Shown one piece after another: positions 30,313 through 60,966 of a DNA stretch of 64,000 bases. The notes beneath the pieces were generated by a model that did no database searches, was not told where the DNA came from, and was given only the letters and a program-made list of their open reading frames with translations. The stretch's first letter is position 1. Every line of letters starts with the position of its first letter. Both the position numbers and the translations under genes were made by a program. The stretch is from Eubacteriales bacterium. Lineage in GTDB: Bacteria; Bacillota; Clostridia; Oscillospirales; CAG-272. The stretch covers positions 11,152 through 75,151 of the forward strand of contig JAZRGT010000099.1 in assembly GCA_045644325.1 (NCBI GenBank). Reading direction: 5' to 3'.

Positions 30313-32634
30313 CTATTTTTCTCCGCCGAAATCCAACTCCGCTATCTTTGCATTTACCGTCACACGGTCTAGCGGAACGGTCGCTTCGGGAGAAACGATA
30401 AAGCCGTACTCTTCACCGAATATATATACCCGTGGCGTGCTGCCGAGAGGTAAGTCAAATACTTCTTTATTGACAGGTCCGTGAGCGCCTACAAGCACGG
30501 CATCACTTTGCGATGCGAGCTCTTCAAGCTTATTTTCAAAGCATAAGCCATCCTCCCACGACGATGCTGAAAGATAAGTAACCCGCTTTTTACCGTCGGA
30601 GATTGACAGATACGTTACCGGATGTGTTGAACGCTCGATTCGGGTGATACGCGGATATGTAAGAGTTATGCCATTGGCAATTTCGACCTCTCCTTCGGGA
30701 GGAATGACACGTACAGCCACGCCGGATTTTTGAAGTATATCTGCTATCTGCACCATTATCCACGCTTCGTCCTCGGTTGTCGGATACGGAAGAAGGACAA
30801 GCCCTACCTTCTCCTCCGCGGTAAAACGTGAGATCGCCGAAACATGGCGATTGTGATAATGCGTAAGGATCACGGTATCAAACTCAGTTGCCCCGTTTTC
30901 CTGTGCCAGATTTGCGATCGTACGCAATCTTGTGTACGATCCGTCCGAAACATCGATCAGCACGTTTTCTTCCCGTAGCTGTAGGAAAATATTTTCATCG
31001 CTGCCGGTACTGATGCAAGTTAATTGCGCGTTTTGAGGCAACGCCGCAGCGGCGATCAAAGAAATTACTATCAATACTATAGGATAAAACGCCGGAATGA
31101 CAAGCAAAATCTCTTTTCGTTTGATTTTAATTAGCAAGGCGGCAACAAGGATCACCGTGAAGATCATTACCGTCGATACCACACCGCGCGACGTCAGAGA
31201 AACAGATGCGCCGGGGATATCCGAAATTCTTTCGGCGACTTCAAGTATTATTTCCGAGCACACCCTGACAGCATATACAAGTCCCTCTCCGATATACGGC
31301 ACTTTTCCGAATATCAAGCAAAGAAGTGACGAGACAAGCATCGGCGCGCCGAGGGGCGCGAGTATCAGATTCGAAATCAATGCATATCGGGACGTTTCAT
31401 CAAACATATATACCGACGGAAGTAGTGTCGCAGAAACGGCGCAAAGAGTCGTCATAATTACCGCAAGCAAGCTCCACAAAATCTTGCCGATCCTTTTATT
31501 CTTCTTCTCTTCCTTTTCATCTTCATTTCTGAATTTTCGAGGGAGTAAAGTAAAGGTGGGCAAAAATGCGGCTATACCGAGCGTGGCGCAGAACGATAGG
31601 ATAAAGCTTTTATCAAAAACAGAGGTTGGACTTATCAAAACAATCATCGCCGCCGCTAAGCCAAGCGAATTCAGCGTATCCGAATTATCTCCCATCGAAT
31701 ACGCGAGGAAAACCACAGTCAGCATAGTGACCGATCTGACAGCGCTTACGGAAAAACCGAGTACGAGCAGGTATCCGAGCGAAAATAGGATAAGTAATGC
31801 GTTTCTCAAGCCTCGTTTGATGCGTAGATTGATCAGAAACAGCGAAATGAGTCCCGTTATTATAGACACGTGAAGTCCGCTTACGGCGAGGTAGTGAGAG
31901 ATTCCCGCTCGGCTGAAATCGCGGTACATTTCGGATGTTAGGGATTCTCTGTCGCCGAGAAGCATTGCGGCAGAAAGTCTTCCCGCATCACCTCGAACCG
32001 TATTTATCAGTTTTGCACAAAGATAAGAATTAACTTTATCAAGTCTGTCGGACAAAGTATAATTGCCTTCGGAAAGAATATGGCAATCCGTCTCGCTGTA
32101 GGAGGTTATGTAGAGGAAAATCTCATCCGCCATAAAGGATGCAGCCTCGTTTTCGGCAAGGCGTAGGGTATATTCAACGTCTGCGGAACGAAGAACGAAT
32201 TCGTAGCCAACCTGAAGATCCGAGTTATATTCGCAATTAAGTATAGCTTTTCCGTCATAGCTGATGCCATCGACCGATCTTATACGAACAACGTATACCG
32301 TATAATAATCGCCGGAGCCATATCTTTCCGCAACGGTAGCGTGTACGTACGCTTTCTCTGCGCAAAGAGCTTCCGCTTCCGGCGCTGTTCTGTAAAAGAC
32401 CTTTACTCCTTGCATCCACGCAGTCAGAAAAACAGCAAAAACCACTATGATCGAAAAAGCTCTGTACGGCTTTACAATTCCAAAAGCAAGAAGCACGATA
32501 CACAGTGCAACAATCAGAAACGACACGGCGATTATAAGAACGTTTACAGACAAAGTCCAATAAAAAGCGGCGAGGATGGCTACGACCGCCAGAATCCCCG
32601 CCGCAATTCCCGGTCTTCCACCGAAAATATTCAT
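30313..32634 (-). CDS. comEC: ComEC/Rec2 DNA internalisation channel protein
   Basis: 773 aa with an N-terminal DUF4131-like region, a polytopic competence domain (SGLHVSII motif), and a C-terminal MBL-like domain carrying a degenerate THYHNRH motif. Confidence 0.85.
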   Translation of the reverse strand: MNIFGGRPGIAAGILAVVAILAAFYWTLSVNVLIIAVSFLIVALCIVLLAFGIVKPYRAFSIIVVFAVFLTAWMQGVKVFYRTAPEAEALCAEKAYVHATVAERYGSGDYYTVYVVRIRSVDGISYDGKAILNCEYNSDLQVGYEFVLRSADVEYTLRLAENEAASFMADEIFLYITSYSETDCHILSEGNYTLSDRLDKVNSYLCAKLINTVRGDAGRLSAAMLLGDRESLTSEMYRDFSRAGISHYLAVSGLHVSIITGLISLFLINLRIKRGLRNALLILFSLGYLLVLGFSVSAVRSVTMLTVVFLAYSMGDNSDTLNSLGLAAAMIVLISPTSVFDKSFILSFCATLGIAAFLPTFTLLPRKFRNEDEKEEKKNKRIGKILWSLLAVIMTTLCAVSATLLPSVYMFDETSRYALISNLILAPLGAPMLVSSLLCLIFGKVPYIGEGLVYAVRVCSEIILEVAERISDIPGASVSLTSRGVVSTVMIFTVILVAALLIKIKRKEILLVIPAFYPIVLIVISLIAAAALPQNAQLTCISTGSDENIFLQLREENVLIDVSDGSYTRLRTIANLAQENGATEFDTVILTHYHNRHVSAISRFTAEEKVGLVLLPYPTTEDEAWIMVQIADILQKSGVAVRVIPPEGEVEIANGITLTYPRITRIERSTHPVTYLSISDGKKRVTYLSASSWEDGLCFENKLEELASQSDAVLVGAHGPVNKEVFDLPLGSTPRVYIFGEEYGFIVSPEATVPLDRVTVNAKIAELDFGGEK

Positions 32635-38861: not shown

Positions 38862-40706
38862 TTAATAAATTCTTACCTCATATACCTTGATCGCGGGGGC
38901 GCCGTTGGTTGCGAGGACGTGGATCTTAACCTCGTCTGCCTCGGTGGGATCTACGTCGCAGACTGCAAGGCGGAGATAGTTGCCGCGGACTTCCTTCTTG
39001 GAAACTTCCTTGCCGTCCTTATAAAGAACAACGTCGAAGTCCTTGAGAAGCTCGGGAGCAACGCCGATTCTCTGCTGAGACTGTCTGTTAGCGGACATAG
39101 TAACACGGATGGGGTATGCGAAGTTGGAGTCGGAGGTTACTCTTACCTGGCTTACGGTCTTTGCGCCGTCGAGCTTGAGGGTAAGGGTCTCGCCACCCTC
39201 GGAGATCGAATCGGTCATCCAAGCGTTATGCTCCTCGCCGATCTTTCTCGATACGCCGTTGATGACCTTCTCGGGCTCGCCGCCTGCGATGAAGGAAGAA
39301 GCCGAAACGGTTGCGGTGAGTGCCATATCCTTTGCGTCCTCATTCTTGTAAGGCAGGGGGAGATAGCCGTCTTCGCGGAGCATGATCTGCTGAAGCTCGG
39401 TGATGTGCTCGCCTACGCCGCGGGGATCGCAGCCGTACTTATCGCAGAGAGAAGCCGCAACGCCGACAGCCTGACCGCCGTTTGCACAGCAAGAGATAAT
39501 TCTTGTGGATGCAAGGCCGAGCTTGGTTGTGGAGATATTTCTTCCCGCCATAAAGAGGTTCTTGATGTTCTTGGAGTAGTAGCAACGGTAAGGAACGGTA
39601 TAGATACCCTCGAAGTGGTTGCAATCGGAGGGGAGAATATCGAAGTCAAGAAGTCCGTGGGGCGCGTGAAGGTCTACGCACCAACCTGCGTGGATAACAG
39701 CGTCATCGAATACTTTGTGATCGAGAATATCATTCTCGTTGAGCATATAGTCACCCATAAGTCTGCGGCTCTCGCGCATTCCGGGGAGTGCGCCTACCCA
39801 GATAAGCTCGAAGTTATCTGCGCCGTGCTCGCCGCCGTTCTTGATGTGATCCCAGAGACCGTATGCATAAGCGTAGAGATCGTCACGGATCTTTTCATAG
39901 TCCTCGATGATGTCCTCGCCGTCGCCCATAAGCTCGAGCCACCAGTAGCCGTAGTCAACTGCCGCGCAGGAGTTAGCGGAAAGGCGGAGCCATTCCTCGG
40001 GGTCGGGAGCCATGGAAGCATCAACCTTCATAGTCTTGGAGTGAACTCTGTAACGGAGCTGATGCTCGGTGAGGTGCTTTGCGAAAGGAGGAGGAGTGAA
40101 CTTAACGGGCTTGCCGGTGTCGACAGCCTTCATAAGGATGGTGTTACCCATTCTCTCGTTGTTAGCCTCTGCGGGAGCGTGGGGCTCGCCGGTTTCAGCC
40201 TTGGATTCGCTTCCCTGTCTGAACTCTGCGCCTGCGAAGTAGCCGAGGGTACCGTTACCGGTACAGTCAGCGAAGATGGGAGCGGTGATGCGGAGACGGA
40301 GCTCGGTAGTCTCCTGGAAGCACTTGATCGCTACGATGCGATCGTCCTCAACCTCGCAATCGTACATTGCGGTGTTGAAATATGTAGTAAGATTGGGCTC
40401 TTCCTTTGCCTTACGGAAAAGGACCATATCCCAAGTGGAATAGCTGAAGGAATCGTTTACAGCCTTGTTCTCAAGCATAAGCTCGTAAACAAGTCCGCTC
40501 TCTGCATAGTCGGGCTGACGAAGGCTCTGGTCAGCGCCTGAGATGTGGATACGGATCTCGCTGGATGCGTTGCCGCCGAGTACGGGACGGGCGTGGATGA
40601 GCGCAGTCTTAACACCCTCACGAGCCGCCGCGATAGCAGCACAAAGTCCGGACATACCTCCGCCGACAACAACAAAGGAATAATGTTCTTCTCTGAATCT
40701 CTTCAT
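38862..40706 (-). CDS. FAD-dependent oxidoreductase (FAD_oxidored-type) with C-terminal discoidin/F5-8-type-C-like domain
   Basis: N-terminal dinucleotide fold FVVVGGGMSGLCAAIAAAREG...GGNASSE. The C-terminal region of about 150 aa resembles a carbohydrate-binding beta-sandwich. Confidence 0.7.
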   Translation of the reverse strand: MKRFREEHYSFVVVGGGMSGLCAAIAAAREGVKTALIHARPVLGGNASSEIRIHISGADQSLRQPDYAESGLVYELMLENKAVNDSFSYSTWDMVLFRKAKEEPNLTTYFNTAMYDCEVEDDRIVAIKCFQETTELRLRITAPIFADCTGNGTLGYFAGAEFRQGSESKAETGEPHAPAEANNERMGNTILMKAVDTGKPVKFTPPPFAKHLTEHQLRYRVHSKTMKVDASMAPDPEEWLRLSANSCAAVDYGYWWLELMGDGEDIIEDYEKIRDDLYAYAYGLWDHIKNGGEHGADNFELIWVGALPGMRESRRLMGDYMLNENDILDHKVFDDAVIHAGWCVDLHAPHGLLDFDILPSDCNHFEGIYTVPYRCYYSKNIKNLFMAGRNISTTKLGLASTRIISCCANGGQAVGVAASLCDKYGCDPRGVGEHITELQQIMLREDGYLPLPYKNEDAKDMALTATVSASSFIAGGEPEKVINGVSRKIGEEHNAWMTDSISEGGETLTLKLDGAKTVSQVRVTSDSNFAYPIRVTMSANRQSQQRIGVAPELLKDFDVVLYKDGKEVSKKEVRGNYLRLAVCDVDPTEADEVKIHVLATNGAPAIKVYEVRIY

Positions 40707-40848
40707 TTAAATAATTTCCTCCGAAGATAATTTTTTCATACAGATTAATTATACTATATTTTATCAGAAAGGTCAATACCTATTTAGGGCTTGTACATCA
40801 ATTATCTGTAAATTTTCGTTTATTTATCGAAAAAAATCAGAAATTCTC

Positions 40849-40877
40849 TTGACATATTGAATAATTAGCTTTATAAT
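40849..40877 (+). promoter_or_regulatory. Consensus sigma-A promoter of mscL
   Basis: TTGACA, 17-nt spacer, TATAAT. It places the TSS near 40884, so the start codon is 40910. Confidence 0.75.
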
Positions 40878-40909
40878 ATTATATGATTAAAATAGCCGGA
40901 GGTTTTATT

Positions 40910-41443
40910 ATGGCAAAGAAAAAGAGCACCTTTGGTGCGGACTTCAAGAAATTCATTTCTCGCGGAAACGTAGTTGATATGGCAGTCGGCGTTGTTGTCG
41001 GCGGCGCGTTCAGCAAGATCGTAACCGGTTTTGTTAACTACGTCATCAATCCCTTCGTAGGCATCTTCCTCAAGAGCGGCAGCCTTGACTCGATCAAGAC
41101 CGTTATCACTCCCGAAGAGCTCAACGAGGCGGGGGAAGTTGTTACCGCAGAGGTTGCACTCCTTTGGGGTACTTGGCTCCAGACCATCATCGACTTCCTT
41201 ATCATCGCTTTCTGCATCTTCTGCGTTGTCAGAATGATCAACAAGATCAAGGATAAGGCAAACGAGAAGGAAGCTCTTGCAAAGGCTGAGGCTGATGCTG
41301 CCGCTAAGAAGGCTGCTGACGAGAAGGCAGCGGCTGACGCAGAGGCTGCAAAGGCAAAGGCTGAGGAAGAGGCTGCATTCCGCGCTTCCATTATGAAGCA
41401 GACCGAGCTTCTCGCTGAGATCAGCAAGTCTCTCAAGAAGTAA
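40910..41443 (+). CDS. mscL: Large-conductance mechanosensitive channel with extended A/E/K-rich C-terminus
   Basis: FKKFISRGNVVDMAVGVVVGGAF is the classic MscL N-terminus/TM1. GGAGG RBS. Confidence 0.9.
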   Translation: MAKKKSTFGADFKKFISRGNVVDMAVGVVVGGAFSKIVTGFVNYVINPFVGIFLKSGSLDSIKTVITPEELNEAGEVVTAEVALLWGTWLQTIIDFLIIAFCIFCVVRMINKIKDKANEKEALAKAEADAAAKKAADEKAAADAEAAKAKAEEEAAFRASIMKQTELLAEISKSLKK

Positions 41444-41499
41444 TTTACACACAAGGGACGGCTTAAATGCCGTCCCTACGCATTACCCGGAGGTTTAAT

Positions 41500-41949
41500 A
41501 TGAAAAACAAAACTCCATTTCGCGAGCGAGTATGGCAATTTATGCAAGGACGCAACGGCGTTGACGCGCTTTACAATTTTCAGATAATCGTTTGCTTCGT
41601 TCTTATAATCGTGAATTTCTTTCTCACGGGTATACCGAAGCTGATCATCAGCGTCATCTATCTCGCTATCATTTCCTGGGCATTTTTCAGATATTTGTCG
41701 AAAAATCTCTACAAAAGACGTAAAGAAAACGCAGATTTTCTTCGTTTTATAAAAAAATTTGCCGCATTTTTCCGCCTGCAGCGTGACCGTATACGCGACA
41801 GAAAAACTCACGTTTACCGCCGCTGTCCGAAATGCAAGAACGTTTTGCGCCTGCCCAAAAAGGCGGGAAAGCACAACGTCTGCTGTCCCTGCTGTTCTCA
41901 CAGATTCGGCGTTTATATTGCGGGATTTGCCCCAAAGGGCGATAAGTAA
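41500..41949 (+). CDS. Membrane protein with C-terminal zinc-ribbon
   Basis: Two TM helices then CPKC...CCPCC. GGAGG RBS 7 nt upstream of the ATG at 41500. Confidence 0.6.
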   Translation: MKNKTPFRERVWQFMQGRNGVDALYNFQIIVCFVLIIVNFFLTGIPKLIISVIYLAIISWAFFRYLSKNLYKRRKENADFLRFIKKFAAFFRLQRDRIRDRKTHVYRRCPKCKNVLRLPKKAGKHNVCCPCCSHRFGVYIAGFAPKGDK

Positions 41950-41987
41950 AAATAAAGCCAAGGATTTGAGTTCCTTGGCTTTATTTT
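41949..41987. terminator. Bidirectional terminator ending the decarboxylase-like operon
   Basis: Perfect 16-bp stem AAAATAAAGCCAAGGA/TCCTTGGCTTTATTTT with a 7-nt loop. Confidence 0.85.
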
Positions 41988-43045
41988 TATATTATATGAA
42001 TTCCTTTTTCGGGATGTGAGTGAAGCAGATCAAGGCAATAGCGCTTGGCGTTTCTGCGCTTGAAAAAGTCGATTGCGTCCCCTCCCCAAAGAGCGTATGT
42101 CAGTACATCCTCTTCCTGCTCCGACCAAGCGGCGATTTTATCTTCGATAAGCTCAAGTGAGGGCTCGATCATATCAGCGGGACGAACGAGAACAAGCGGC
42201 TCACCGCCGCAAATCGCGGAGATGAGATCTTGCGAGATCGGGCAAGGAGTTCTGCCGTATTTACCGAGGAGAAGATCCTTGAACCGGGGAGAGACCTCTG
42301 CGTAAGGCTCTTTGAAATGATTCATAACAGCTTGCTCAATAACGATATCACGAACAAAACCGAAAAGCGGAGGATGTCCAGCGTCCGGGCAGAGTTTTTC
42401 TATCTCATCCGCATATTCTGCGGGTATTGGATCGCTGATATCGTTTTCGTATAAATCCGCACCTGAATCAATCGCTATTTTCGAAATCACGGTAGACATA
42501 CCCGAAACGCCAAGCGGGAGATTTACTGCTTCTTTAATCGCTTTCACGGTGTCGCGGCAGGAAAAATCTTCCGACATTGAGAAGAGCCAGATTCCGTCGG
42601 CGCCGAGTGCTGAAAGCTGTGCGGCGTAGCCTGCAAAGAACGAGGGAGAATACGCCGGATTCTTTGAATAGACCATACCCGCATATACTTTCACTCCGCA
42701 TCTTTTGGCGGCGGTGATTGCCGTTTGCAGATTGCGCGGATCATTTAGCGGATCGTATATCCTGAACTCGGAAATTCCGTTTTCGACAGCTCGTGTTACG
42801 AACGCCTCGACAATATCGTCGGATAAAATCCTGTCGGAAACGAGGCATTGTCCCGCAATAGTCAGCGAAAGCGGAGTATTCGCCGTTTCTGCACGAATTG
42901 CGCGGAGCAGATCCCACGGATCGTAATCAAGCTCGGAAAAGCAAACGCGAGTCACATCGATGGCGACGTAATGATAACAGTCCAATTGCCCGAGTGTGTC
43001 AAGTTCTGCGTAGCCGAGCGTGGTATATTCATTGAAAGCATCCAT
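41987..43045 (-). CDS. OadA / transcarboxylase-5S-like TIM-barrel protein lacking the catalytic metal-ligand motifs (probable pseudoenzyme)
   Basis: DPWDLLRAIRAETANTPLSLTIAGQC, ENGISEFRIYDPLNDPRN and the C-terminal LVRPADMIEP...EDVLTYALW align to the OadA/PYC_OADA pattern. The RDxHQS, KDM and HxHxH motifs are absent or replaced. Confidence 0.65.
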   Translation of the reverse strand: MDAFNEYTTLGYAELDTLGQLDCYHYVAIDVTRVCFSELDYDPWDLLRAIRAETANTPLSLTIAGQCLVSDRILSDDIVEAFVTRAVENGISEFRIYDPLNDPRNLQTAITAAKRCGVKVYAGMVYSKNPAYSPSFFAGYAAQLSALGADGIWLFSMSEDFSCRDTVKAIKEAVNLPLGVSGMSTVISKIAIDSGADLYENDISDPIPAEYADEIEKLCPDAGHPPLFGFVRDIVIEQAVMNHFKEPYAEVSPRFKDLLLGKYGRTPCPISQDLISAICGGEPLVLVRPADMIEPSLELIEDKIAAWSEQEEDVLTYALWGGDAIDFFKRRNAKRYCLDLLHSHPEKGIHII

Positions 43046-43048
43046 AAC

Positions 43049-43177
43049 TTATTTTTCTTCTGCTTTCTCTTCCTTTTTCTCGGAGGCTTCGCCTTCTTTT
43101 GCGGACTCTTCCTCTTTGATCTCTTCAATTTCAACGACGTATTCCTTGCCGTTTACCTTCACTTTGAATTTTCTCAT
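43049..43177 (-). CDS. 42-aa small protein resembling the N-terminal module of decarboxylase biotin-carrier/small subunits (no biotinyl domain)
   Basis: Not in the ORF track (under 60 aa). MRKFKVKVNGKEYVVEIEEIKEEESAKEGEASEKKEEKAEEK. GAGGTG RBS overlaps the upstream stop; its own stop is 3 nt before the next ATG. Confidence 0.55.
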   Translation of the reverse strand: MRKFKVKVNGKEYVVEIEEIKEEESAKEGEASEKKEEKAEEK

Positions 43178-43185
43178 TTTACACC

Positions 43186-43488
43186 TCAGCCTATGCGGCG
43201 GTTATTTGTTCTTTTGAATGATACTACGCGGAAAGCGGGGACTTCTTCTCTGCCCTCGGCTTTCGCTTCTTCCTCTAAAATAATTGCGATTGCGGCTGTG
43301 ACAGCGGCGACTTCCTCGGAATCATCCTCTTCGGGAATCACAGCTTGCTGTTCGGCAATTTGCTTTCTTTCGATCCATTTACGCAGATATGCAAGACCGA
43401 TATAAAGAGCCGCGACGACTATAACGCCGATGATCACGAAAAGCATGGAGCCGTTCTGTGTGGGCTCGGAATTAAGTAAAAAGTTCAT
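43186..43488 (-). CDS. OadG-family (decarboxylase gamma/delta-type) single-pass membrane subunit
   Basis: N-terminal TM helix, then EEVAAVTAAIAIILEEE, typical of OadG/MmdD. Start set at the ATG at 43488 (AGAGG RBS, 5 nt after the upstream stop). Confidence 0.65.
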   Translation of the reverse strand: MNFLLNSEPTQNGSMLFVIIGVIVVAALYIGLAYLRKWIERKQIAEQQAVIPEEDDSEEVAAVTAAIAIILEEEAKAEGREEVPAFRVVSFKRTNNRRIG

Positions 43489-43492
43489 CGAC

Positions 43493-44953
43493 TTACCTCT
43501 TTTTGCGCACGGGAGTCGCATTCTTTTTGCCGAGGAGCATATGGAGTGCAGCGATCACGCGGGGGCGGAGCTCGGAGGGAGTCAGGATATCGTCGATTTC
43601 ACCGCAGAGAGCGGCATCATTGGGCGAAGCGAGCTTTTCGCGCCATTCGATCTCAAGCATCTCGCGGCTTGCGGTCAGATCGTTCTGCCTGATGCGTTCG
43701 CTCCAGACGAAGGCAACCGATGCTTCGGGCGAAAGCGCGCTGATGCAGGAGTCGGTCAGCGCGAACGCGATATCCGCGCCGAGAGATTTCGACGCCATAT
43801 AGACGAATCCAACGCCGTAGGCTCTGCCGATGACGGAGGTTATCTTCGGATTCGATGAGAACGCAAATGCATCCGTCATAGCCGCAGCACTTTCGAGGTA
43901 GAAGGCATTTTCCGTGACGGAATTGTCAAATCCGGGGCAATCGACGAAGGAGAGCAGCGGCAGACCGAATGAGTCTGCAAATTTCTGTATTTTTGTTATA
44001 ACGCGGCAAGCGCCGGGAGTGAGTGCGCCATCCTTATGCGCGCGCTCCGATGCCATAAAAGCGCATCCGACACCGCCTACGGAGGCAAAACCAACGGCAA
44101 TTTCGGGTGCGTATTCGGCAAACAGACGGATATAATTCTTTTTATCCGATATTTCCGCAACGAGTGCTTCACCGCAGAGTAATCGGAGGTCGGGGGCGCG
44201 TTGAAGTTCAAACTCGGGAATATCGAAGTCAACGGCAGTTCCCTCGGTATTATTAGAAGGTAGAAAACCTATCAGATTTCGCGCAAAGCGGTAAAGCTCG
44301 GCTTCATCCTCGGCTTCGTAAGCAGAAATACCCTCGGGTGCGGGGAATGTTTTCGTTCCGTTTACAAAGGGAGATACGGCGTAGATCTCTGACGATTCCT
44401 TTACGGAAACAATGAAATCAAACGATGATGCGAATACAGCATGAGTGCCGCCGCAGACGCCGGGAACGAGTGCGATACGCGGAACGATACCGACGGCGGA
44501 GCTGTTTGCCGCGGCGGTCCTTCCGAGTGCGGCGAGCATTTTTGCGCCCTCGTAGATATACGCGCCGTCACTGTCGAAGATCCCGACGATGGGAGCACCG
44601 TTGCGCAGAGCCATTGAGTAAAGGTCGCAGATCAGTTTGCCCGATGTCGAATCGAAGGCTCCGTTCATTCGTGCACGGTCTTGAGCGAAGGCGTATACAA
44701 GTCTTCCGCCTACAGCACCGTAGCCGCAGATAACGCCCGCGGGCTCGTCGGGATCGGAGGAGCGGTTCATATACGCACCGATGCGCGAGAAGGTGCCGTG
44801 ATCGAAAAGCGCGGTCAGTCGTGCCGCAGCAGTAAACTCGCCCGTGCTTTCAACAGCCGCAGAAACGTCGATCTCGCGAAGCATTTCGGTCAGCTTTTCC
44901 GCCGTCATCGCGCGGCGCAGGCTTTTATTTTTTTCTTTAGAGTTGTTATCCAT
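43493..44953 (-). CDS. Acyl-CoA carboxyltransferase (AccD/PccB/MmdA/GcdA family), divergent
   Basis: Two carboxyl-transferase halves: GYGAVGGRLVYAFAQD...NGAPIVGIFDSDGA...VPGVCGGT and GALTPGACRVITKIQKFADSFGLPLLSFVDCPGF. Confidence 0.75.
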   Translation of the reverse strand: MDNNSKEKNKSLRRAMTAEKLTEMLREIDVSAAVESTGEFTAAARLTALFDHGTFSRIGAYMNRSSDPDEPAGVICGYGAVGGRLVYAFAQDRARMNGAFDSTSGKLICDLYSMALRNGAPIVGIFDSDGAYIYEGAKMLAALGRTAAANSSAVGIVPRIALVPGVCGGTHAVFASSFDFIVSVKESSEIYAVSPFVNGTKTFPAPEGISAYEAEDEAELYRFARNLIGFLPSNNTEGTAVDFDIPEFELQRAPDLRLLCGEALVAEISDKKNYIRLFAEYAPEIAVGFASVGGVGCAFMASERAHKDGALTPGACRVITKIQKFADSFGLPLLSFVDCPGFDNSVTENAFYLESAAAMTDAFAFSSNPKITSVIGRAYGVGFVYMASKSLGADIAFALTDSCISALSPEASVAFVWSERIRQNDLTASREMLEIEWREKLASPNDAALCGEIDDILTPSELRPRVIAALHMLLGKKNATPVRKKR

Positions 44954-44984: not shown

Positions 44985-45013
44985 ATTATACCATAAATTC
45001 CTCTTTTTTACAA
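44985..45013 (-). promoter_or_regulatory. Sigma-A promoter of the decarboxylase-like operon
   Basis: Minus strand reads TTGTAA, 17-nt spacer, TGgTATAAT. Confidence 0.7.
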
Positions 45014-45194: not shown

Positions 45195-46496
45195 ATGGAA
45201 AAGAAAACAATAGGCAAGTTCATATCCGTTTTGCGCAAGGCAAACGGTATGACACAAAAGGATCTCGCTGACAGACTTTTCGTTTCTGATAAGACCGTCA
45301 GCCGCTGGGAGCGCGACGAGTGCGACCCCGATCTTTCACTTATCCCCGCGATTGCTGAGCTATTCGGGATCACAACGGATGAACTGCTCCGAGGTGAGCG
45401 GAATTCACCCGCCTCTGCCGAATATCAAAATGAAGACGAGATCATCAAGCAAAAGAAAAAGACCGAAAAGCAATTTAAAGCTATGCTCTTCGGCAAGAAG
45501 CGTAAATTCGAGAATCTCACTCTTATTTCTGTCGGAATATCGCTACTCGGTCTGATCGTCGGAATGATAATCAACCTCGGCTTCTCGAAGGGACTCATCG
45601 CATTCTTTACCACCTCTGCATTTCTGCTCGGCGGCACGATCTGTCAGATCTGCTTTACGTCCAACGCGAAAATCGCCGTAAACGATGACGACGATTACCG
45701 CGAGCTTACCGAGGCGGCAAACACAGCGTTTTTACAAAAATCTATCGCAGTATATTTTGTAAATATCGCGATCTTCGCGTTCTGTCTGCCGCTTGTCACG
45801 CTCATAAACGGCGCAAATTTCGGTCTTAAATTCGGATCGTGGCTTTTGTACGGAATTGCATTCGCTGTCGGCGGGAGCATTCTTGCATATATGATCTACC
45901 GCTTTATTATCAAGCCTGCGCTGATTAGTCGGAATATTCTCATTTTTAATGAAATGGGACTTGCGCGCGAAAAATATACGCGAAAGCTTCTGATTCGACT
46001 TTCGTCGGTCAGCTTGGTTATCGCAATTCTTCTCGGTATTGCAATAACGGTTGTCAACAGTTTCGGTACAGCAGAATTTGCAGACAAAGTAATTCTTGAA
46101 ACTCCCGAAGAGTTCAAGGAATACATGGAATCAAGCTATGACGAAGCGAAAAATATATCGGGCGATTGGTACTATGACGAAAATGGAAACCTCATAGGCT
46201 CTGCAGTCATCGTCGACGAAGATAATCCCGATCCTTTCAAGGTTTATGACAATCTTCTTGATAAGAACGGAAACGTACTCTGCGAATACTATTACCACTC
46301 CAACCTGTATTCGCGTATCGAGTATAATATAGAGTCCGAAAATCGTTGTCCGATAACGGTCTACACACAAGAGGCGATGAGAGAAGCGGGAGTTTTGATA
46401 TCAGAAATCAAATCTATGCTTGGTATCGCTATCTTTGCAGAGGTGTCACTATTCGTAGGGATTTACATTATCAAGGTAGCAAGGAAAAAAGATTAA
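45195..46496 (+). CDS. Membrane-tethered XRE-family HTH protein (HTH, about 6 TM helices, C-terminal extracytoplasmic domain)
   Basis: KFISVLRKANGMTQKDLADRLFVSDKTVSRWERDE HTH_3 signature, multiple hydrophobic helices, GGAGG RBS. Confidence 0.8.
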   Translation: MEKKTIGKFISVLRKANGMTQKDLADRLFVSDKTVSRWERDECDPDLSLIPAIAELFGITTDELLRGERNSPASAEYQNEDEIIKQKKKTEKQFKAMLFGKKRKFENLTLISVGISLLGLIVGMIINLGFSKGLIAFFTTSAFLLGGTICQICFTSNAKIAVNDDDDYRELTEAANTAFLQKSIAVYFVNIAIFAFCLPLVTLINGANFGLKFGSWLLYGIAFAVGGSILAYMIYRFIIKPALISRNILIFNEMGLAREKYTRKLLIRLSSVSLVIAILLGIAITVVNSFGTAEFADKVILETPEEFKEYMESSYDEAKNISGDWYYDENGNLIGSAVIVDEDNPDPFKVYDNLLDKNGNVLCEYYYHSNLYSRIEYNIESENRCPITVYTQEAMREAGVLISEIKSMLGIAIFAEVSLFVGIYIIKVARKKD

Positions 46497-47448: not shown

Positions 47449-48873
47449 TTAAAGATTAAAGTACTTATCAAACTCTGCGGGGTGCGGGATCTTGGACATC
47501 TCGCTGCACTCGGCGCGCTTGGTCTTGATGAAGTTTTTGATAAGCTCCTCGGGGAATACGCCGCCTGCTGTGAGGTAGTCGTGGTCTGCCTCGAGAGCGG
47601 AGAGAGCTTCCTCGAGAGAGGTGGGAAGTCCCTTGAGCTTTGCCTTCTCTTCCTCGGGAAGGTGGAAGAGGTTGAAGTCGTAGGGACCCCAGCCTTCAGC
47701 GTGGGGATCGATCTTATTCTTGACACCGTCAAGACCTGCCATAAGGATTGCCGCGTAGCAGAAGTAGGGGTTGCAGGTCGCGTCGGGGTTACGAAGCTCG
47801 AAACGGCGCTTTTCGGGCGACTTTGCATAAGCGGGGATTCTGATTACCGCGCTTCTGTTCGAGGTCGCATAGCCGATTGTTACGGGTGCCTCGAAGCCGG
47901 GAACAAGTCTCTTGAAGGAGTTGGTGCTGGGGTTGGTGAGTGCGCAGAGGGATGCAATATGCTTGAGAAGTCCGCCCATGAAGTAATGCGCGGTTTCGGA
48001 GAGGTGAGCGTAGCCGTTATCGTCAGAGAATACGGGCTTGCCGTCCTTCATAAGGAGCATATGAACGTGCATTCCGCTTCCTGCCTCGCCGTAGATGGGC
48101 TTGGGCATAAATGTTGCGGTCTTGCCGTACTTGAGCGCGGTGTTGTGGATGATGTACTTGATCATCATAGTAGCATCAGCCATATGTACTACCTCGCCGA
48201 GCTGAGGCTCGATCTCAAACTGACCGGATGCGGCAACCTCGGGGTGGTGATAGTTGATCTCGATGCCCATTTCCTTCATAAGAAGGCACATTTCGCTACG
48301 TGCTTCATAGGAAATATCAAAGGGCTTTGCAATGTGATAATTCTTCTGCTTGGGAACGACGACGCCGAGGCCCTCGGTTGCGCTGTTCCAATAGGACTGC
48401 TTTGCGTCGATGGAGGCGCTGATCTCGTTACCGCTGACCTGCCAGCCTGCGCGGTCGAAGAGATAGAACTCGAATTCGGGAAGAATGAACATCTCATCAG
48501 CGATGCCGCTCTTCTTCATTTCCGCAACAGCCGCCTTGATGATGTTTCTGGGGTACTGGGGCAGGGGGCGGTTTTCGGGTGTGTCGATGATCATTGCATT
48601 ACCGGTCATCGAAAGGGTGGGAATGGAACAGAAGGGGTCGATGACTGCGGTATCGGGGTCGGGGATGAATACCATATCGCTCTTCTCTACTACCGCATAG
48701 CCGTAGTTGGACGCGTCAAAGCCGATACCGCTCTTCATAGTGTCCTCAGAGAAGTTAGCCGCGGGAATGGATACGTGACGGTACTGACCGTTGATATCGA
48801 CCATCTTGAAGTCGATCATCTTTATACCGTTTTCTTCGATCATCTGAATGATGTCTTTTACGTTCTTGCTCAT
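47449..48873 (-). CDS. glnA: Glutamine synthetase (type I-like)
   Basis: KPIYGEAGSGMHVHMLL ATP-site motif, FDASNYGY, NPYF and RIP motifs, 474 aa. Confidence 0.9.
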   Translation of the reverse strand: MSKNVKDIIQMIEENGIKMIDFKMVDINGQYRHVSIPAANFSEDTMKSGIGFDASNYGYAVVEKSDMVFIPDPDTAVIDPFCSIPTLSMTGNAMIIDTPENRPLPQYPRNIIKAAVAEMKKSGIADEMFILPEFEFYLFDRAGWQVSGNEISASIDAKQSYWNSATEGLGVVVPKQKNYHIAKPFDISYEARSEMCLLMKEMGIEINYHHPEVAASGQFEIEPQLGEVVHMADATMMIKYIIHNTALKYGKTATFMPKPIYGEAGSGMHVHMLLMKDGKPVFSDDNGYAHLSETAHYFMGGLLKHIASLCALTNPSTNSFKRLVPGFEAPVTIGYATSNRSAVIRIPAYAKSPEKRRFELRNPDATCNPYFCYAAILMAGLDGVKNKIDPHAEGWGPYDFNLFHLPEEEKAKLKGLPTSLEEALSALEADHDYLTAGGVFPEELIKNFIKTKRAECSEMSKIPHPAEFDKYFNL

Positions 48874-48949: not shown

Positions 48950-50341
48950 TTACTCAAACATCATATTTTCTACGAACAGATCGGTGAAATATTTGTTCGC
49001 TGACAGATCGACGTAATTTATCATTTTTATCAAGCCGTCGAGATCGTTTCCCTCGATAGCAAACTTTACCGTTCCCTGCAGACTGCTGTTATTCAGCGCA
49101 ACGGTTTTGCCCGCGAGCTCGCGCGGGAGGAGTCCGCTGTTTACGGCATTCTGTATATTGATCTTACTTGAAAATCCGCCCGAGATATACATATGGGAAA
49201 TATCATCGAAATCAACGCCCTCGGTCTTCATCAGCGAGAGTATCGCCGAGCAGACTGCGGATTTGGCAAGCTGATACTGTCTTACGTCATCGGTGGCGAG
49301 GTAGACTCCGTCGGCGATTTCATAATCGTCGTCCATATAGCCCGTTTCGTCAATTATTTCGTTGCGAAGGAGCTCGGTGATTATGTCGATCAGACCTGTA
49401 CCGCAGATGCCGACGGCTTTTTCGTCTGCAATCGTCTGATAGGTTGCGTTGCCGTAATCAAGACGGAAGGAATAGATCGCGCCCTTCGTTGCGCTCATTC
49501 CGCAGCTGATGTTCGCGCCCTCAAAGCAAGGTCCTGCTGCTGCGGCGGTGGCAACTCCCGACTTATTAGAGAACAATACTACCTCCGCATTAGTTCCGAG
49601 GTCGACGAGGAGATCGTACTTCCCTTCCTCGGGCGTTCCGACAAGTCCAAGGCCTGCGACGATATCCGCGCCGACGAATGATGCCACGGACGGGAGCGAG
49701 ATTACAGTTTTTACGCCGCGAAGACCGATCGACTCTGCCTGCTCCGTTTTACTTTCAAGAAATACGGGAGTGTACGGTGCGACGCCGATGGATGACGGAT
49801 CGATGCCGAATAGCGTGTGAAGCATAGTGACGTTTGCGGAAACGTACATATTATCAACGCATCCGACGTCAAATTCCGCGATCATTCGGTTGATTTCATT
49901 CACGAGAACCGATTGAAGCTCTTTTACCGAGTTCTTTTGGCAATAGTCAATACGCGTAATAACGTCCGCGCCGTAAGCTCTTTGAGGATTTGTTGCAGTT
50001 GCGACCTTTACGGTCTTTTTCTCATCGAGCGAAACAAGGGCGAGGGCGAGGGTGGTAGTTCCAATATCGAGAGCGAAGCAGAGCTTGCCCGAAGCCGAAC
50101 CGCTTGCGCTGATGCCGGTTTCTGAAATTATCGCGCTCTTTTCATAGGTTTCAACCTCAATGTCGGACTCGACAATATATCTGCACGCGAGCTTTTCTTC
50201 GCCGCAGACCTTGACCTTGCATTTGCCGCAGGTGCCTCTGCCGCCGCAGGGCTTTTCAATATCGAGTAAATCCGAGAGGACCGTACCTGCGGGCGCAAGT
50301 ACGGTCTTTCCGTTTATTGTAACTTTAAACTGCTTATTCAT
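48950..50341 (-). CDS. Corrinoid reductive activase (RACo/RamA-like: 2Fe-2S ferredoxin domain + ASKHA/DUF4445 ATPase)
   Basis: N-terminal CGGRGTCGKCKV...C cluster motif. ASKHA motifs DIGTTT, DLGTNAE, GICGTG. Confidence 0.75.
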   Translation of the reverse strand: MNKQFKVTINGKTVLAPAGTVLSDLLDIEKPCGGRGTCGKCKVKVCGEEKLACRYIVESDIEVETYEKSAIISETGISASGSASGKLCFALDIGTTTLALALVSLDEKKTVKVATATNPQRAYGADVITRIDYCQKNSVKELQSVLVNEINRMIAEFDVGCVDNMYVSANVTMLHTLFGIDPSSIGVAPYTPVFLESKTEQAESIGLRGVKTVISLPSVASFVGADIVAGLGLVGTPEEGKYDLLVDLGTNAEVVLFSNKSGVATAAAAGPCFEGANISCGMSATKGAIYSFRLDYGNATYQTIADEKAVGICGTGLIDIITELLRNEIIDETGYMDDDYEIADGVYLATDDVRQYQLAKSAVCSAILSLMKTEGVDFDDISHMYISGGFSSKINIQNAVNSGLLPRELAGKTVALNNSSLQGTVKFAIEGNDLDGLIKMINYVDLSANKYFTDLFVENMMFE

Positions 50342-50342
50342 T

Positions 50343-50918
50343 TTATTCTCCGTCGGGCGTGAACAGTACCGCGCCGAAATAGGTGACGGTATTCTGACCG
50401 TTGATGTACTTCATACCGGCAGACTTCGCAAGCTCGTTGACGTTGACACAGTATGCCTCAAGCGACGCCATAGCGAGCTCGGGGAAACGGCAGGGCTCAC
50501 CCGTGCGCTTGGCACAGACCTTGCAAACGCCGCATGCTCCGACACCGAGATGAAGAGCGTTATTAATCCCCATCTCGCCAAAAGCAGAGCGGAGATTTTG
50601 CGATAACGGACGGAAGTTCTGCTTCGCCTCCGTCATTCCTTCGATATCAAAGCTGTCTTCAAGCTGTGATACTGTCTGATAAACCAGAGCGTATTTATAA
50701 TTCTTCAACTGCGCTGTAAGGGCTTCGACATCGCCTACGTCGGGCGGGCACATATAGCACTTTCCGCACATTCCGCATCCGTTTGAGAGGCAGATGTCAC
50801 GAAATACGCGATCGGTCTTTATCTCGCTTGCGCGAATAACGCTTGCTTTGTTGGCGCCAAGCTCAAGCGCCTTATCAATAATAATCTTATCTTCCATAAT
50901 ATTCATTACTTGCCGCAA
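50343..50918 (-). CDS. DUF2284-like Cys-rich metal-binding protein
   Basis: CGMCGKCYMCPP and GACGVCKVCAKRTGEPCRFP motifs. Start may be a downstream Met, since it overlaps the upstream gene by 32 nt. Confidence 0.6.
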   Translation of the reverse strand: MRQVMNIMEDKIIIDKALELGANKASVIRASEIKTDRVFRDICLSNGCGMCGKCYMCPPDVGDVEALTAQLKNYKYALVYQTVSQLEDSFDIEGMTEAKQNFRPLSQNLRSAFGEMGINNALHLGVGACGVCKVCAKRTGEPCRFPELAMASLEAYCVNVNELAKSAGMKYINGQNTVTYFGAVLFTPDGE

Positions 50919-51900
50919 AGAATGCGTCGATGTTCTCCCACGGAGTCATGGGAGGTACGTCACAGCCGGTTGAGAGGACGAAATTCGGGTACTTCGAGCA
51001 CTTCTCGAGAAGCGCGAGTGTTTCCAAGCGCACCTTTTCGGGAGTGCCGAGACGAAGTGTTCCCGCGGGATCTATATTGCCCATTACTACTGTATCGGCG
51101 GGGATATTCGGAATGATATCCTTCTCCATATCCACCGAGTTGCCGAAATGGTAAGCGGCACAGCCCGTGGTCAGGATCGAATCGAGCATCTTGGGTACGT
51201 TATCGCCGCAGTTATGGTAAATGACCGCAAAGTCGTCAGTCTGCACCGCGTCTACGATCTTTTTGACGTATGGCGATCCGAATTCTTCCTCGAGAGTCGG
51301 GGAGAGCAGACCCGCTACGGGCTCTGCCATAACGATTCCGTTTGCGCCCGCAGCCTTGTATGCCTTGGCGTATTCGCAAAGGAATTCGGTGACCTTTTCA
51401 AGCACCGTGTGCACCATATCGGGATCATCGTAGCAATCCATCATTATTTCGGTCACGTCAAGAAGACGCGCCGCGAGGGAGAAAGGACCGATCATACCCG
51501 CGAGCACGGGGCGGTCGGTTATCTCCGCAGATGCATTTTTGATGGCGTCAAGATATATCTGCGTTCTGCCGCTTCCGACAGCAGGAACAGCGAGAGCTTC
51601 TGCTTCATCCATATCATTGACTATTCTGCCTTTGACGGTGGGAACCTCTTCGTCGGAAACCACGATATTGGCGCCGAAGCATTCAGCCTCGAGGGAAAGA
51701 TCCATAAAGCTGACAGATGCGGCGGAGGGAGTTCTGTCGGCTACAGCCTTCATTCCCCTTGCCTGAAGCTCGCTCGAGGAGATCAAATCGCGGACGGTGA
51801 CGCTGAGGAGGCTAACGCAGGGAAAGGAAAGTATCGGAATCGGATTCTTCGCGCCGATGCCTTTAAGCGACGCAATCCATTCTTTCATATTGTAATTCAT
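50887..51900 (-). CDS. URO-D-family methylcobamide methyltransferase (MtaA/MtbA-like, MT2-type)
   Basis: 337 aa with H-x-C (YHNCGD) plus a downstream Cys (STGCDVPP), consistent with the His-x-Cys-Xn-Cys zinc motif of MT2 enzymes. Confidence 0.7.
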   Translation of the reverse strand: MNYNMKEWIASLKGIGAKNPIPILSFPCVSLLSVTVRDLISSSELQARGMKAVADRTPSAASVSFMDLSLEAECFGANIVVSDEEVPTVKGRIVNDMDEAEALAVPAVGSGRTQIYLDAIKNASAEITDRPVLAGMIGPFSLAARLLDVTEIMMDCYDDPDMVHTVLEKVTEFLCEYAKAYKAAGANGIVMAEPVAGLLSPTLEEEFGSPYVKKIVDAVQTDDFAVIYHNCGDNVPKMLDSILTTGCAAYHFGNSVDMEKDIIPNIPADTVVMGNIDPAGTLRLGTPEKVRLETLALLEKCSKYPNFVLSTGCDVPPMTPWENIDAFFAASNEYYGR

Positions 51901-51917
51901 ATCGAAATCCTCTGAAA

Positions 51918-53039
51918 TTAAATTCGGATATTCTTGATCTCTTCAGCGTAATACTGAACAAGCTCAAATTTTGAGCCGGGCAACAGACGGTGATCGGGAC
52001 AGGGGATGAATCCTCCCATATCAAACAGACGTTTGATACGTTCAATCTCAACGTCGACAGCCTGCTTATCCTTGCGGAACGCGGTCTTATCCATACCGCC
52101 GACTCCGAGTATCTCTTTGCCATACTTCTTACGCGCGGGCTCGAACTGATCGCCCCAAGTACCGATCTCGATTGGGAACAAGACGTTTACGCCCGTTTCA
52201 AGCCAAGTGGGGATCAGCTTTTCGGTGACTCCGTCGCAGTCGAGGGAGATGATGTCGATGCCGTGCTTATGTAAAAGATCATTACGCTTTTTATAGTGCT
52301 TGCGGCAGAGCTCGTCAAAAAGTTCGGGGGAAAGGAGCGGTCCGCTCTTGTAGCAGATATCCTCCCAATAATGACCGAAATCAAACTGCGCTCCCGTAGC
52401 AAGTGCCGCCTCGACGCACTTATACTGCATCTCGGCATAGGTATCAACTATGTCTGCGAAGAGTTCCTCGTCCTCATCATAGATGAGATAGCTCATACCC
52501 ATTACGGTGGTTATATCTCTTATATGTCCCATAACGCTGCCGACGTGGATTCCTATCGGAATATCGGTCGCGCGTGTTTCGTTAAATTTCTTTAAAGCCT
52601 CGGTGTTGACTCTTTCGGGTGAGTATTGCATTTTCGGTTTGAAAAGAGTTTCAAAAGCCTCACGGTCCTTGAGAAGATAATCATCTTCAGAAGGAATAGA
52701 TACCACGCCAGGCTTGATGCGCTCAATAACACCGTTAGAAGTCAAGACTCTCTGCGTACCGTCGGGAAGATTTTCGAGCACTTCACGCTTGAAACGTGGA
52801 AACAGGTGGTTATTTGTACCTACCGTGTTGTACCAATTACAATCCCAACCGATGATCTTATCAAGTTCACGTTGCTCGGGAGAGTTATCACGGACGGCTG
52901 CTTTTGCTATTTCGGCAGTGATATGTCCCTGACAAGCCCACTCGTCAAGAAGCTCTCTCCAATAGCCGAAATGAACGGCGGGGATGCGGTCGGTATCCTT
53001 ATAATGCAGGATATTCATACAACGTTCGCGTGTTGTCAT
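51918..53039 (-). CDS. URO-D-family protein (candidate substrate:corrinoid methyltransferase)
   Basis: URO-D-like C-terminal pattern GGFIPCPDHRLLP; 373 aa; no HxC motif seen. Confidence 0.6.
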   Translation of the reverse strand: MTTRERCMNILHYKDTDRIPAVHFGYWRELLDEWACQGHITAEIAKAAVRDNSPEQRELDKIIGWDCNWYNTVGTNNHLFPRFKREVLENLPDGTQRVLTSNGVIERIKPGVVSIPSEDDYLLKDREAFETLFKPKMQYSPERVNTEALKKFNETRATDIPIGIHVGSVMGHIRDITTVMGMSYLIYDEDEELFADIVDTYAEMQYKCVEAALATGAQFDFGHYWEDICYKSGPLLSPELFDELCRKHYKKRNDLLHKHGIDIISLDCDGVTEKLIPTWLETGVNVLFPIEIGTWGDQFEPARKKYGKEILGVGGMDKTAFRKDKQAVDVEIERIKRLFDMGGFIPCPDHRLLPGSKFELVQYYAEEIKNIRI

Positions 53040-53052
53040 ATTGTTATCCCTT

Positions 53053-54282: not shown

Positions 54283-54315
54283 AAATACCTTCCGAATACG
54301 GAATAGCGAATATTA

Positions 54316-54948
54316 TTATTTGCAGAATTCGACAGCCGCGTCTGCTGCGCTTGCAGCGTCAACGGTATAGATGTCGGCGCCGATCTTCTTGCAGTACTCA
54401 TCGCTTACGGGAGCACCGCCGATCATGATCTTGACCTTATCGCGGATACCTGCCTCCTCAGCCTTCTTCACGACCTCTTCCATAACGCTCATAGTTGTGG
54501 TGAGAAGCGCGGAACAGCAGATGACCTGACAGTTCTGCTCGATAGCGGTCTGAACGAAGGTTTCGGGAGAAACGTCGGTGCCGAGGTCAACTACCTCAAG
54601 GCCCTTGCCCTCCATCATCATCTTAACGAGGTTCTTGCCGATATCGTGAAGATCGCCCTGAACGGTGCCGATGCAGACCTTACCCGTTGCCTTGACGCCC
54701 TCTGCGGCAAGAAGGGGCTTGATGATCTGAACGCCCATATTCATCGCGCGTGCAGCAACGAGAACCTCAGGAACGTAGATCTCATTATTCTTGAACTTTT
54801 CGCCTACGATATTCATACCTGCAAGCAGACCTTCGTTAAGAATCTGCTCGGGATTGATTCCCTGCTCTACTGCCTGAGTGACAAGCTCCTTGACGATTTT
54901 TGCTTTACCCTTTTGAAGATTTTCGCAAATTTCAACTAAAATGCTCAT
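54316..54948 (-). CDS. Corrinoid (B12-binding) protein, MtaC/MtbC-like
   Basis: B12-binding DxHxxG motif (GDLHDIGKN), N-terminal helical cap, Rossmann-like MIGGAP end; 210 aa. Confidence 0.9.
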   Translation of the reverse strand: MSILVEICENLQKGKAKIVKELVTQAVEQGINPEQILNEGLLAGMNIVGEKFKNNEIYVPEVLVAARAMNMGVQIIKPLLAAEGVKATGKVCIGTVQGDLHDIGKNLVKMMMEGKGLEVVDLGTDVSPETFVQTAIEQNCQVICCSALLTTTMSVMEEVVKKAEEAGIRDKVKIMIGGAPVSDEYCKKIGADIYTVDAASAADAAVEFCK

Positions 54949-59711: not shown

Positions 59712-59726
59712 TGATCAGCACTCTCC

Positions 59727-60944: not shown

Positions 60945-60966
60945 TTTTATACCGCTCCTTTCTTAA

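Follow-up and report, generated by a model that had tools for sequence, protein, structure and literature searches.

An OadA/5S-like protein stripped of its catalytic residues in an apparently reduced carboxyltransferase operon of gut Oscillospirales

Biotin-dependent decarboxylases and transcarboxylases are textbook swinging-arm machines, and work on transcarboxylase by Kumar, Wood and colleagues (1980s) reportedly showed the 12S and 5S subunits to be held together by an N-terminal peptide of 1.3S (approximately residues 2–26). The carrier GcdC is anchored to the remainder of its complex by its N-terminal 30 amino acids (aa), and the C-terminal part of GcdD/OadG provides the link to the carboxyltransferase (PMC7145394). 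Here we describe a four-gene operon, CT-G-S-psiA, in a 64-kb stretch of contig JAZRGT010000099.1 (hereafter the window, i.e. the whole stretch analysed), whose last gene, psiA, encodes an OadA/5S-like protein that retains the fold of its family and has lost the catalytic determinants. An earlier note on this DNA, made from the sequence alone, had singled out psiA as a pseudoenzyme candidate; it missed the wider reduction of the locus, where the neighbouring carrier is cut to an anchor peptide and the Na+ pump gene is gone. Members of the psiA family are publicly annotated as 'hypothetical protein' or 'pyruvate/oxaloacetate carboxyltransferase', and a literature search (pseudoenzyme OadA, MmdE, OadA-OadG cryo-EM) returned no description of a dead OadA/5S subunit or of a reduced operon. 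The operon and its signals comprise:

psiA: 41987..43045, minus strand; 352 aa; OadA/5S-like subunit, apparently dead, with a TIM barrel and a PYC_OADA domain
C-terminal tail of psiA: conserved, with the pattern ..LD..H....GIHII
S: 43049..43177, minus strand; open reading frame (ORF) of 42 aa with the sequence MRKFKVKVNGKEYVVEIEEIKEEESAKEGEASEKKEEKAEEK
G: 43186..43488, minus strand; 100 aa; OadG/MmdD/GcdD-like subunit
CT: 43493..44953, minus strand; 486 aa; MmdA/12S/PCC-beta-like acyl-CoA carboxyltransferase, apparently intact
Promoter-like site: 44985..45013, minus strand; TTGTAA, 17 nucleotides (nt), TG-TATAAT; a consensus match only
Predicted intrinsic terminator hairpin: 41947..41989, minus strand; right behind the psiA stop, flanked by A and U tracts

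Fold and active site of psiA

The protein encoded by psiA is a true homologue of OadA, 5S and the carboxyltransferase domain of pyruvate carboxylase (PC), a kinship that had been proposed from alignment by eye. It was matched by phmmer to 5ks8_C (E=1.7e-42), 2nx9 (6e-38) and 1rqb (7e-36), and Foldseek aligned its AlphaFold2 model, built on a 16-sequence alignment (predicted local distance difference test, pLDDT, 90.3; predicted template modelling score, pTM, 0.89; eight strands and eight helices), with 5ks8, 2nx9 and 1rqb at TMq 0.82–0.87. In this model psiA is predicted to retain the (beta/alpha)8 barrel followed by the PYC_OADA helical domain. PF02436 (PYC_OADA; 50.6 bits, cut-off 27) is the sole Pfam domain that passes in psiA, with no match to PF00682 (HMGL-like) at E<=0.1, while the NCBIfam OadA/PycB equivalogs score psiA at about 210 bits against cut-offs of 400–760, i.e. 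approximately a quarter to half of the cut-off (best score 211.8 vs 402; oadA model 188 vs 756). Sequence identity to the closest intact relatives (465–482 aa) is 35–46%.

The fold is kept and the active site is erased, as the earlier note had it. According to residue calls from phmmer, MAFFT and structure-based alignments, none of the metal ligands (RD Asp, carbamyl-Lys, His-x-His) is present in psiA. The RGQN motif reads A64-G65-Q66-C67, with Arg replaced by A64, Asn by C67, and G65 and Q66 retained; the carbamyl-Lys motif KDM reads F155-S156-M157; and the L-H-x-H-x segment is a 5-residue gap at the L178/G179 junction. All three of these losses had been read from the sequence before, and in profile and structure alignments the ligands are absent rather than shifted. 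The N-terminal RDxHQS motif is likewise gone, replaced by ..TTLGYAEL.. with RD becoming T-L/G and approximately 11–15 residues deleted behind it, but psiA does not simply start behind the motif as had been claimed, a strand beta-1 (residues 6–9) being predicted in the model. In the pocket, the HQS Gln, the RGQN Arg, the biotin-pocket Asp of ATFD (now R33), the Tyr of LGY (now D71) and the Thr of GTSQP are all lost from psiA, the catalytic Thr loop having disappeared with some 88 residues behind beta-8 (after residue 204), where residues 205–210 take the place of 5ks8 residues 232–319. The DRE-TIM Glu is replaced by Asp; this change, the deletion behind beta-8 and the loss of the pocket Asp and Tyr had not been listed in the earlier note. 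The roles that we assign to these pocket and ligand positions are those we take the structures of 5S, OadA and Rhizobium etli PC to imply. Judged from its sequence, psiA would be unable to bind the catalytic metal, pyruvate/oxaloacetate or biotin.

It is exceedingly improbable that psiA is an active, divergent carboxyltransferase whose ligands have merely been shifted by misalignment. Its Asp at position 2 does align with the RD Asp in one MAFFT run, but the model places this residue ahead of strand beta-1. No Lys or His can be found where beta-6 and beta-7 end, both the HxH segment and the Thr loop have been physically removed, and phmmer, MAFFT and the structural search concur.

A protein search recovered two short classes matching PF02436 alone: about 33 clusters of 345–369 aa (hereafter the 350 class), 40–100% identical to psiA, and about 25 clusters of 406–410 aa (the 408 class), approximately 35% identical to it, with some members lying on gut-metagenome contigs of up to 541 kb. 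In a census of the ligand columns, Lys and both His were absent from every short-class protein (53/53), down to 35% identity. All 66 intact relatives that could be aligned at the four ligand columns read D-K-H-H, and one further relative, truncated at the N-terminus, reads -KHH. Nor are the nearest homologues of psiA intact enzymes next to which it would stand out as a freshly broken copy.

A third, independent dead lineage, P0229 (L090, 244..2294), emerged from a profile search of 1.84 billion representatives. There RD is replaced by GL, RGQN by NSRG, the Lys by L and HxH by HAA, with no large deletions, and the gene is directly followed by an intact OAD_gamma, an intact BCCP (with EAMKME) and the beginning of OadB. 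P0229 is known solely from 2-kb metagenome contigs; its occurrence beside these intact partners suggests that the role of an OadA subunit is separable from catalysis. Six other OadA-like proteins (P0128, P0148, P0192, P0060, P0074 and P0117) have intact ligand motifs and internal deletions of 40–150 residues in the barrel or lid, which are either variants or artefacts of assembly or gene calling.

Partner genes and operon reduction

CT, G, S and psiA follow one another, closely packed, from 44953 to 41987 on the minus strand. The promoter-like site sits 32 nt ahead of the CT start, G begins at ATG 43488, 4 nt past the CT stop (the program-made ORF list gives a longer G ORF, with its start at 43521), and a GAGGTG Shine-Dalgarno-like sequence lies upstream of S. 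The TAA stop of S is followed after 3 nt by the ATG of psiA, which bears out the translational coupling noted previously. The terminator hairpin (free energy −23.1 kcal/mol, z = −9.2; 0/200 shuffles as stable) is common to psiA and the convergent gene 41467..41949. The operon is flanked by usual Clostridia chromosomal genes, i.e. those for MscL, an FAD oxidoreductase and an HTH membrane protein, and glnA.

The S peptide consists of MRKFKVKVNGKEYVVEIEEI and then an acidic/Lys tail, with neither an Ala/Pro linker nor a biotinyl domain. It fits M(K/R)x(F/Y)x(V/I)TVNGxxYxVxVEE, the N-terminal motif of 56 intact BCCP genes in related operons, and S has no AMKM motif and no PF00364 match; S corresponds to the N-terminal anchor hairpin of the biotin carrier BCCP. 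It is present in 11/11 degenerate loci examined. Among solved structures, the 42-aa S peptide had no match and a 24-column profile of the anchor hairpin gave matches at chance level only; a full intact BCCP aligns from residue 2 to 8hz4_E and 5ks8_C. The earlier note had listed the C-terminal biotinyl domain among the losses of psiA. This domain is indeed absent, but it was not lost by psiA, as the closest intact homologues (465–482 aa) also have no fused biotinyl domain and rely on a carrier encoded by a separate BCCP gene; with the adjacent S lacking the domain, the real biotin loss took place there and not in psiA.

A transmembrane (TM) helix is predicted at residues 15–33 of G, and its conserved C-terminal segment (AAVTAAIAIILEEEA...FRVVSFKRTNNRRIG; consensus AAxTAA...FRVVxF(K/R)R) lines up with the OAD_gamma encoded by the intact operons L005 and L042; the match to PF04277 is weak (E=0.03). 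In the 408-class locus L091 (7488..7781, beside P0122), G has no TM helix (maximum Kyte-Doolittle 19-residue window 0.92, vs 2.6–3.1 elsewhere) and keeps the C-terminal FRVVAFKR segment, from which it follows that membrane tethering is dispensable and the association segment is not.

CT matches PF01039 with 204.7 bits and aligns over its full length to 1on3 (12S) and to PCC-beta structures. A set of 56 CTs from intact operons has 23 columns with an invariance of at least 95%; the CT of the window keeps 21 of these and the CTs of degenerate operons 21–22, and their motifs do not differ from those of the intact sisters L005 and L042. CT thus appears intact and under strong constraint. A Pro at the position equivalent to PccB Gly419 was considered as a sign of CT degeneration and rejected, the intact operon L042 having the same Pro.

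The nearest intact homologue of psiA, P0034 in locus L005, belongs to a five-gene operon (Carboxyl_trans, OAD_gamma, Biotin_lipoyl, OAD_beta, OadA). This CT-gamma-BCCP-OadB-OadA arrangement, shared by L005 and L042, whose carrier BCCP bears EAMKME, was found at about 50 further loci of Oscillospirales metagenome-assembled genomes (MAGs); a pump-less CT-BCCP-A variant also occurs. The contig scan, of which 80 loci were kept, returned mostly intact OadA, with L009, L010 and L013 as the degenerate loci among them. All 11 degenerate loci examined contain CT-G-S-psiA and nothing else, and a tblastn search with the OadB of L005 (OAD_beta, PF03977) gave no OadB in the window, in L001–L003 or in the other degenerate loci. 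The CT-G-S-psiA operon therefore looks like a reduced derivative of the five-gene decarboxylase/transcarboxylase operon and, since S ends right at the psiA start, one deletion running from mid-BCCP through oadB could explain its architecture.

The same reduction may have arisen more than once, a point that the CT tree leaves open. In this tree the intact L005 and L042 group with the 350 class (100/100) and the grouping of the 350 with the 408 class has a support of 0, whereas in the A tree the two dead classes form one group (100/100) with very long branches; the conflict between the trees persists when gamma-corrected distances are used. Operons of the two classes are 41–49% identical and occupy different loci and contexts. 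A MutS domain V protein is 78% identical between the window (54..1448) and the 408-class locus L003 (2601..4211), which indicates that the hosts of the two classes are fairly close relatives. In every 408-class locus (L003, L010, L013, L089 and L091) CT is preceded, on the same strand and across a gap of 18–100 nt, by an AsnC-family regulator and a class I/II aminotransferase, a pair reminiscent of alaR-alaT in Bacillus; upstream there is a MutS_V gene and downstream DeoC. The 408-class operon may have a link to pyruvate or alanine metabolism.

The retention of precisely the docking elements would also be expected if psiA, S and G were a regulatory decoy or adaptor, imitating those parts by which a complete OAD/MMD complex, encoded elsewhere in the genome, docks and either plugging CT into the pump and carrier of that complex or competing with its active subunits. 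G-BCCP-OadB-OadA operons without a CT gene do exist in related MAGs (e.g. L051, L054, L068 and L082), and CT looks fully competent for biotin chemistry, making a carrier in trans plausible. No intact partner was seen, however, in the 64-kb window (where profile and homology searches found no biotin-related genes) or in any degenerate locus; the tight coupling of four genes including CT fits stoichiometric partners better than regulators, and the G of L091, lacking its TM helix, could not dock onto a pump. We consider such a decoy or adaptor unlikely.

Selection, constraint and genomic setting

For three pairs of close relatives, the ratio of nonsynonymous to synonymous substitution rates (dN/dS, Nei-Gojobori) was 0.15–0.18 in psiA, compared with 0.05 in CT, 0.10–0.13 in G, 0.12–0.21 in S and approximately 0.03 in the flanking FAD oxidoreductase; psiA is therefore under purifying selection, about 3–4 times more relaxed than that on CT. 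Homologous fold, conserved loss of catalytic residues and purifying selection are thus found together in psiA, and these make up the operational definition of a pseudoenzyme; the pseudoenzyme reading of the earlier note stands up to each of the checks proposed in it. A decaying pseudogene, left over after function went with the biotin domain and the pump, is a very improbable description of psiA, even though the gene evolves much faster than CT and the flanks and only 42 of 172 intact-enzyme invariant columns are left in it. The low dN/dS and the breadth of conservation already largely refute it: more than 50 distinct sequences of the family, down to 35% identity, are full-length ORFs without frameshifts, AlphaFold models the protein with confidence, 11 loci keep both synteny and translational coupling, and CT is strongly constrained.

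Divergence is unusually high across the operon. When the operon (41987..44953) was compared with its flanks (38862..41443 and 47449..48873) against loci L001, L007 and L008, the synonymous rate dS was 0.65–0.86 vs 0.16–0.32, i.e. two to five times higher within the operon. Between the window and L001, identity falls from 98.7% in GlnA, 95% in the FAD oxidoreductase and 90% in MscL to 80% in CT and 46% in psiA. Codon bias, recombination with divergent alleles or balancing selection are possible causes.

Within the operon, constraint on the two large subunits is reversed relative to intact operons, in that A (83% identical) is better conserved than CT (61%) between L005 and L042, and psiA less well than CT between the window and L001. 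The 172 columns invariant in intact A are kept in 169 cases by the intact sisters, in 61 by the 408 class and in 42 by the 350 class. The former active-site segments, most conserved in intact enzymes, are the least conserved in psiA; its most conserved stretches, across the 350 class, are residues 131–150 (SFFAGYAAQLSALGAD), 261–290, 311–320 and the tail 331–352. Helix alpha-5, the C-terminal domain and the tail have thus taken over from the active site as the constrained parts of psiA. The C-terminal tail has low pLDDT, as would be expected for a partner-binding segment.

Where strands beta-3 and beta-4 end C-terminally, eight residues of the old site (G65, Q66, R95, D98, N101, D102, R104 and N105) do not vary in either short class; the two classes also have the replacements E30D, F97Y and N67C/S in common. 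Together with a dN/dS well below 1, these features would suit a neofunctionalised psiA with a new, metal-independent ligand-binding or catalytic site, for instance a keto-acid or acyl-CoA sensor controlling CT. The same eight residues, however, are invariant in intact enzymes too and may have a structural part, elsewhere the pocket varies or has been deleted (the ends of beta-1, beta-6 and beta-7, the RGQN Arg and the lid), and no residue cluster conserved in the dead forms alone was found in the psiA pocket. Neofunctionalisation of this kind strikes us as distinctly unlikely.

Two neighbours accompany the operon. The convergent gene 41467..41949 (plus strand) encodes a membrane protein of 160 aa whose C-terminus carries a zinc-ribbon-like CxxC...CxxC motif, and adjoins the operon in all 350-class loci (71–93% identity). 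The divergent gene 45195..46496 (plus strand) encodes an HTH_3 (XRE-type) protein with several predicted membrane segments, kept at the same position in L001, L007 and L008 (82–84% identity), and is a candidate local regulator of the operon. Elsewhere in the window lie a corrinoid-dependent methyltransferase cluster (48950..54948, minus strand), comprising a RACo-type reductive activator, two URO-D/MtaA-like proteins, a 409-aa protein without a Pfam match and a B12-binding protein, as well as type IV pilus or competence-type genes (58023..61776, minus strand) for a T2SSE ATPase, a T2SSF platform protein and an A24 prepilin peptidase, and a ComEC-like gene at 30313..32634. A role in anti-phage defence was considered and rejected, the operon proteins being without any PADLOC match.

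Possible role and comparison with known systems

Since the docking elements are what survives, a structural role of psiA is most likely, and we think it probable that psiA, though catalytically dead, serves as a structural subunit in a reduced complex whose sole remaining catalytic part is CT, held by S and the tail of G. The earlier note had suggested a structural or regulatory role, of which the structural half appears the better supported. The ancestral complex would have lost the linker and biotinyl domain of BCCP and the whole of oadB, perhaps in one deletion, and decay of the A active site would have come after these losses. The parts retained (the S hairpin, the C-terminal segment of G, and helix alpha-5, the C-terminal domain and the tail of psiA) are those that would hold the complex together. 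In this scheme psiA would be an assembly or stability subunit of the acyl-CoA carboxyltransferase CT, joined to it through S and G, and in most lineages the TM helix of G would tie the complex to the membrane. With psiA as a scaffold, CT could act through a carrier in trans, with free biotin or by uncoupled decarboxylation.

Several points weigh against a structural role. The physical assembly of CT, G, S and psiA is something that we infer. CT-only decarboxylases such as Gcd and Mmd function without an OadA-like subunit, so that a strict structural need for psiA is not obvious. The evolutionary rate of psiA is three to four times that of CT, and divergence is more rapid in the operon than in its flanks, also at synonymous sites, which could reflect a weakly selected or changing role. 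Finally, the invariant residues at the mouth of the old active site (the G65 to N105 set) may reflect residual ligand binding.

As a possibility to which we give little weight, the operon may specify a kind of complex not recognised before, descended from a Na+-decarboxylase or transcarboxylase and with neither biotin carrier nor pump, in which an intact CT sits on vestigial docking parts (a dead 5S, an anchor peptide and a gamma tail). It would work by a new mode of reaction, for instance acyl-CoA decarboxylation without biotin or with free biotin, or carboxyl transfer by way of a carrier borrowed from elsewhere, e.g. AccB. In such a complex psiA might be an allosteric or ligand-sensing subunit.

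The gut Oscillospirales operon is a natural and widely conserved version of a biotin-dependent complex that is left with neither the arm (i.e. the biotinyl domain) nor the pump and with a single active site out of two, in which the second carboxyltransferase and every docking element are kept under purifying selection. It amounts to a natural dissection of the structural parts of such complexes, i.e. the 5S/OadA body, the N-terminal hairpin of the carrier and the C-terminus of gamma, which are poorly resolved in existing structures, and it poses a biochemical puzzle as to how a biotin-type CT acts without a carrier in cis. It also calls for a correction of annotations, as metabolic reconstructions of gut MAGs that count the psiA family as oxaloacetate decarboxylase/transcarboxylase would be wrong.

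Compared with the described systems, psiA shares fold and domain order with 5S of Propionibacterium (1RQB), the carboxyltransferase domain of Vibrio cholerae OadA (2NX9) and the beta subunit of two-subunit PC (5KS8), and its genomic partners (CT, gamma and carrier) match those of 5S/OadA-type systems. Unlike 5S, OadA and PC, it has no metal ligands, no RGQN Arg and no pocket Asp/Tyr or Thr loop, some 88 aa are deleted, and PF00682 is not matched.

The operon resembles the Na+-translocating Oad/Mmd/Gcd systems and the five-gene operon in gene order and in the homology of CT, gamma and A, with S corresponding to the BCCP anchor and the gamma C-terminal FRVV.F(K/R)R kept; G, its weak Pfam match notwithstanding, has the N-terminal TM helix and C-terminal association segment of the Oad/Mmd/Gcd gamma/delta subunits. 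In contrast to Oad/Mmd/Gcd, the operon lacks an OadB pump gene, the Ala/Pro linker, the biotinyl domain (EAMKM) and an active A, and a four-gene complex would by itself be incapable of biotin shuttling or Na+ pumping.

With transcarboxylase (12S + 5S + 1.3S) the operon shares a CT in which the core motifs of 12S are conserved, but neither a competent 5S nor a biotinylated 1.3S is encoded. S has the same type of N-terminal hairpin as 1.3S (MKLKVTVNGTAYDV.. in 1.3S, MRKFKVKVNGKEYVV.. in S) and lies between a 12S-like and a 5S-like gene; it differs in being a natural stand-alone product without a biotinyl domain, and its binding to CT and psiA is putative.

Plant BADC (biotin-attachment-domain-containing) proteins are non-biotinylated BCCP paralogues that inhibit acetyl-CoA carboxylase (ACCase), and they provide the analogy for a decoy or adaptor role of psiA, S and G. 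They keep the fold of the biotinyl domain and inhibit an otherwise complete ACCase, whereas in the psiA operon this domain is gone by deletion, with no complete complex encoded nearby. Like the BADC proteins, the psiA operon presents catalytically inert derivatives of biotin-enzyme subunits that have been kept under selection.

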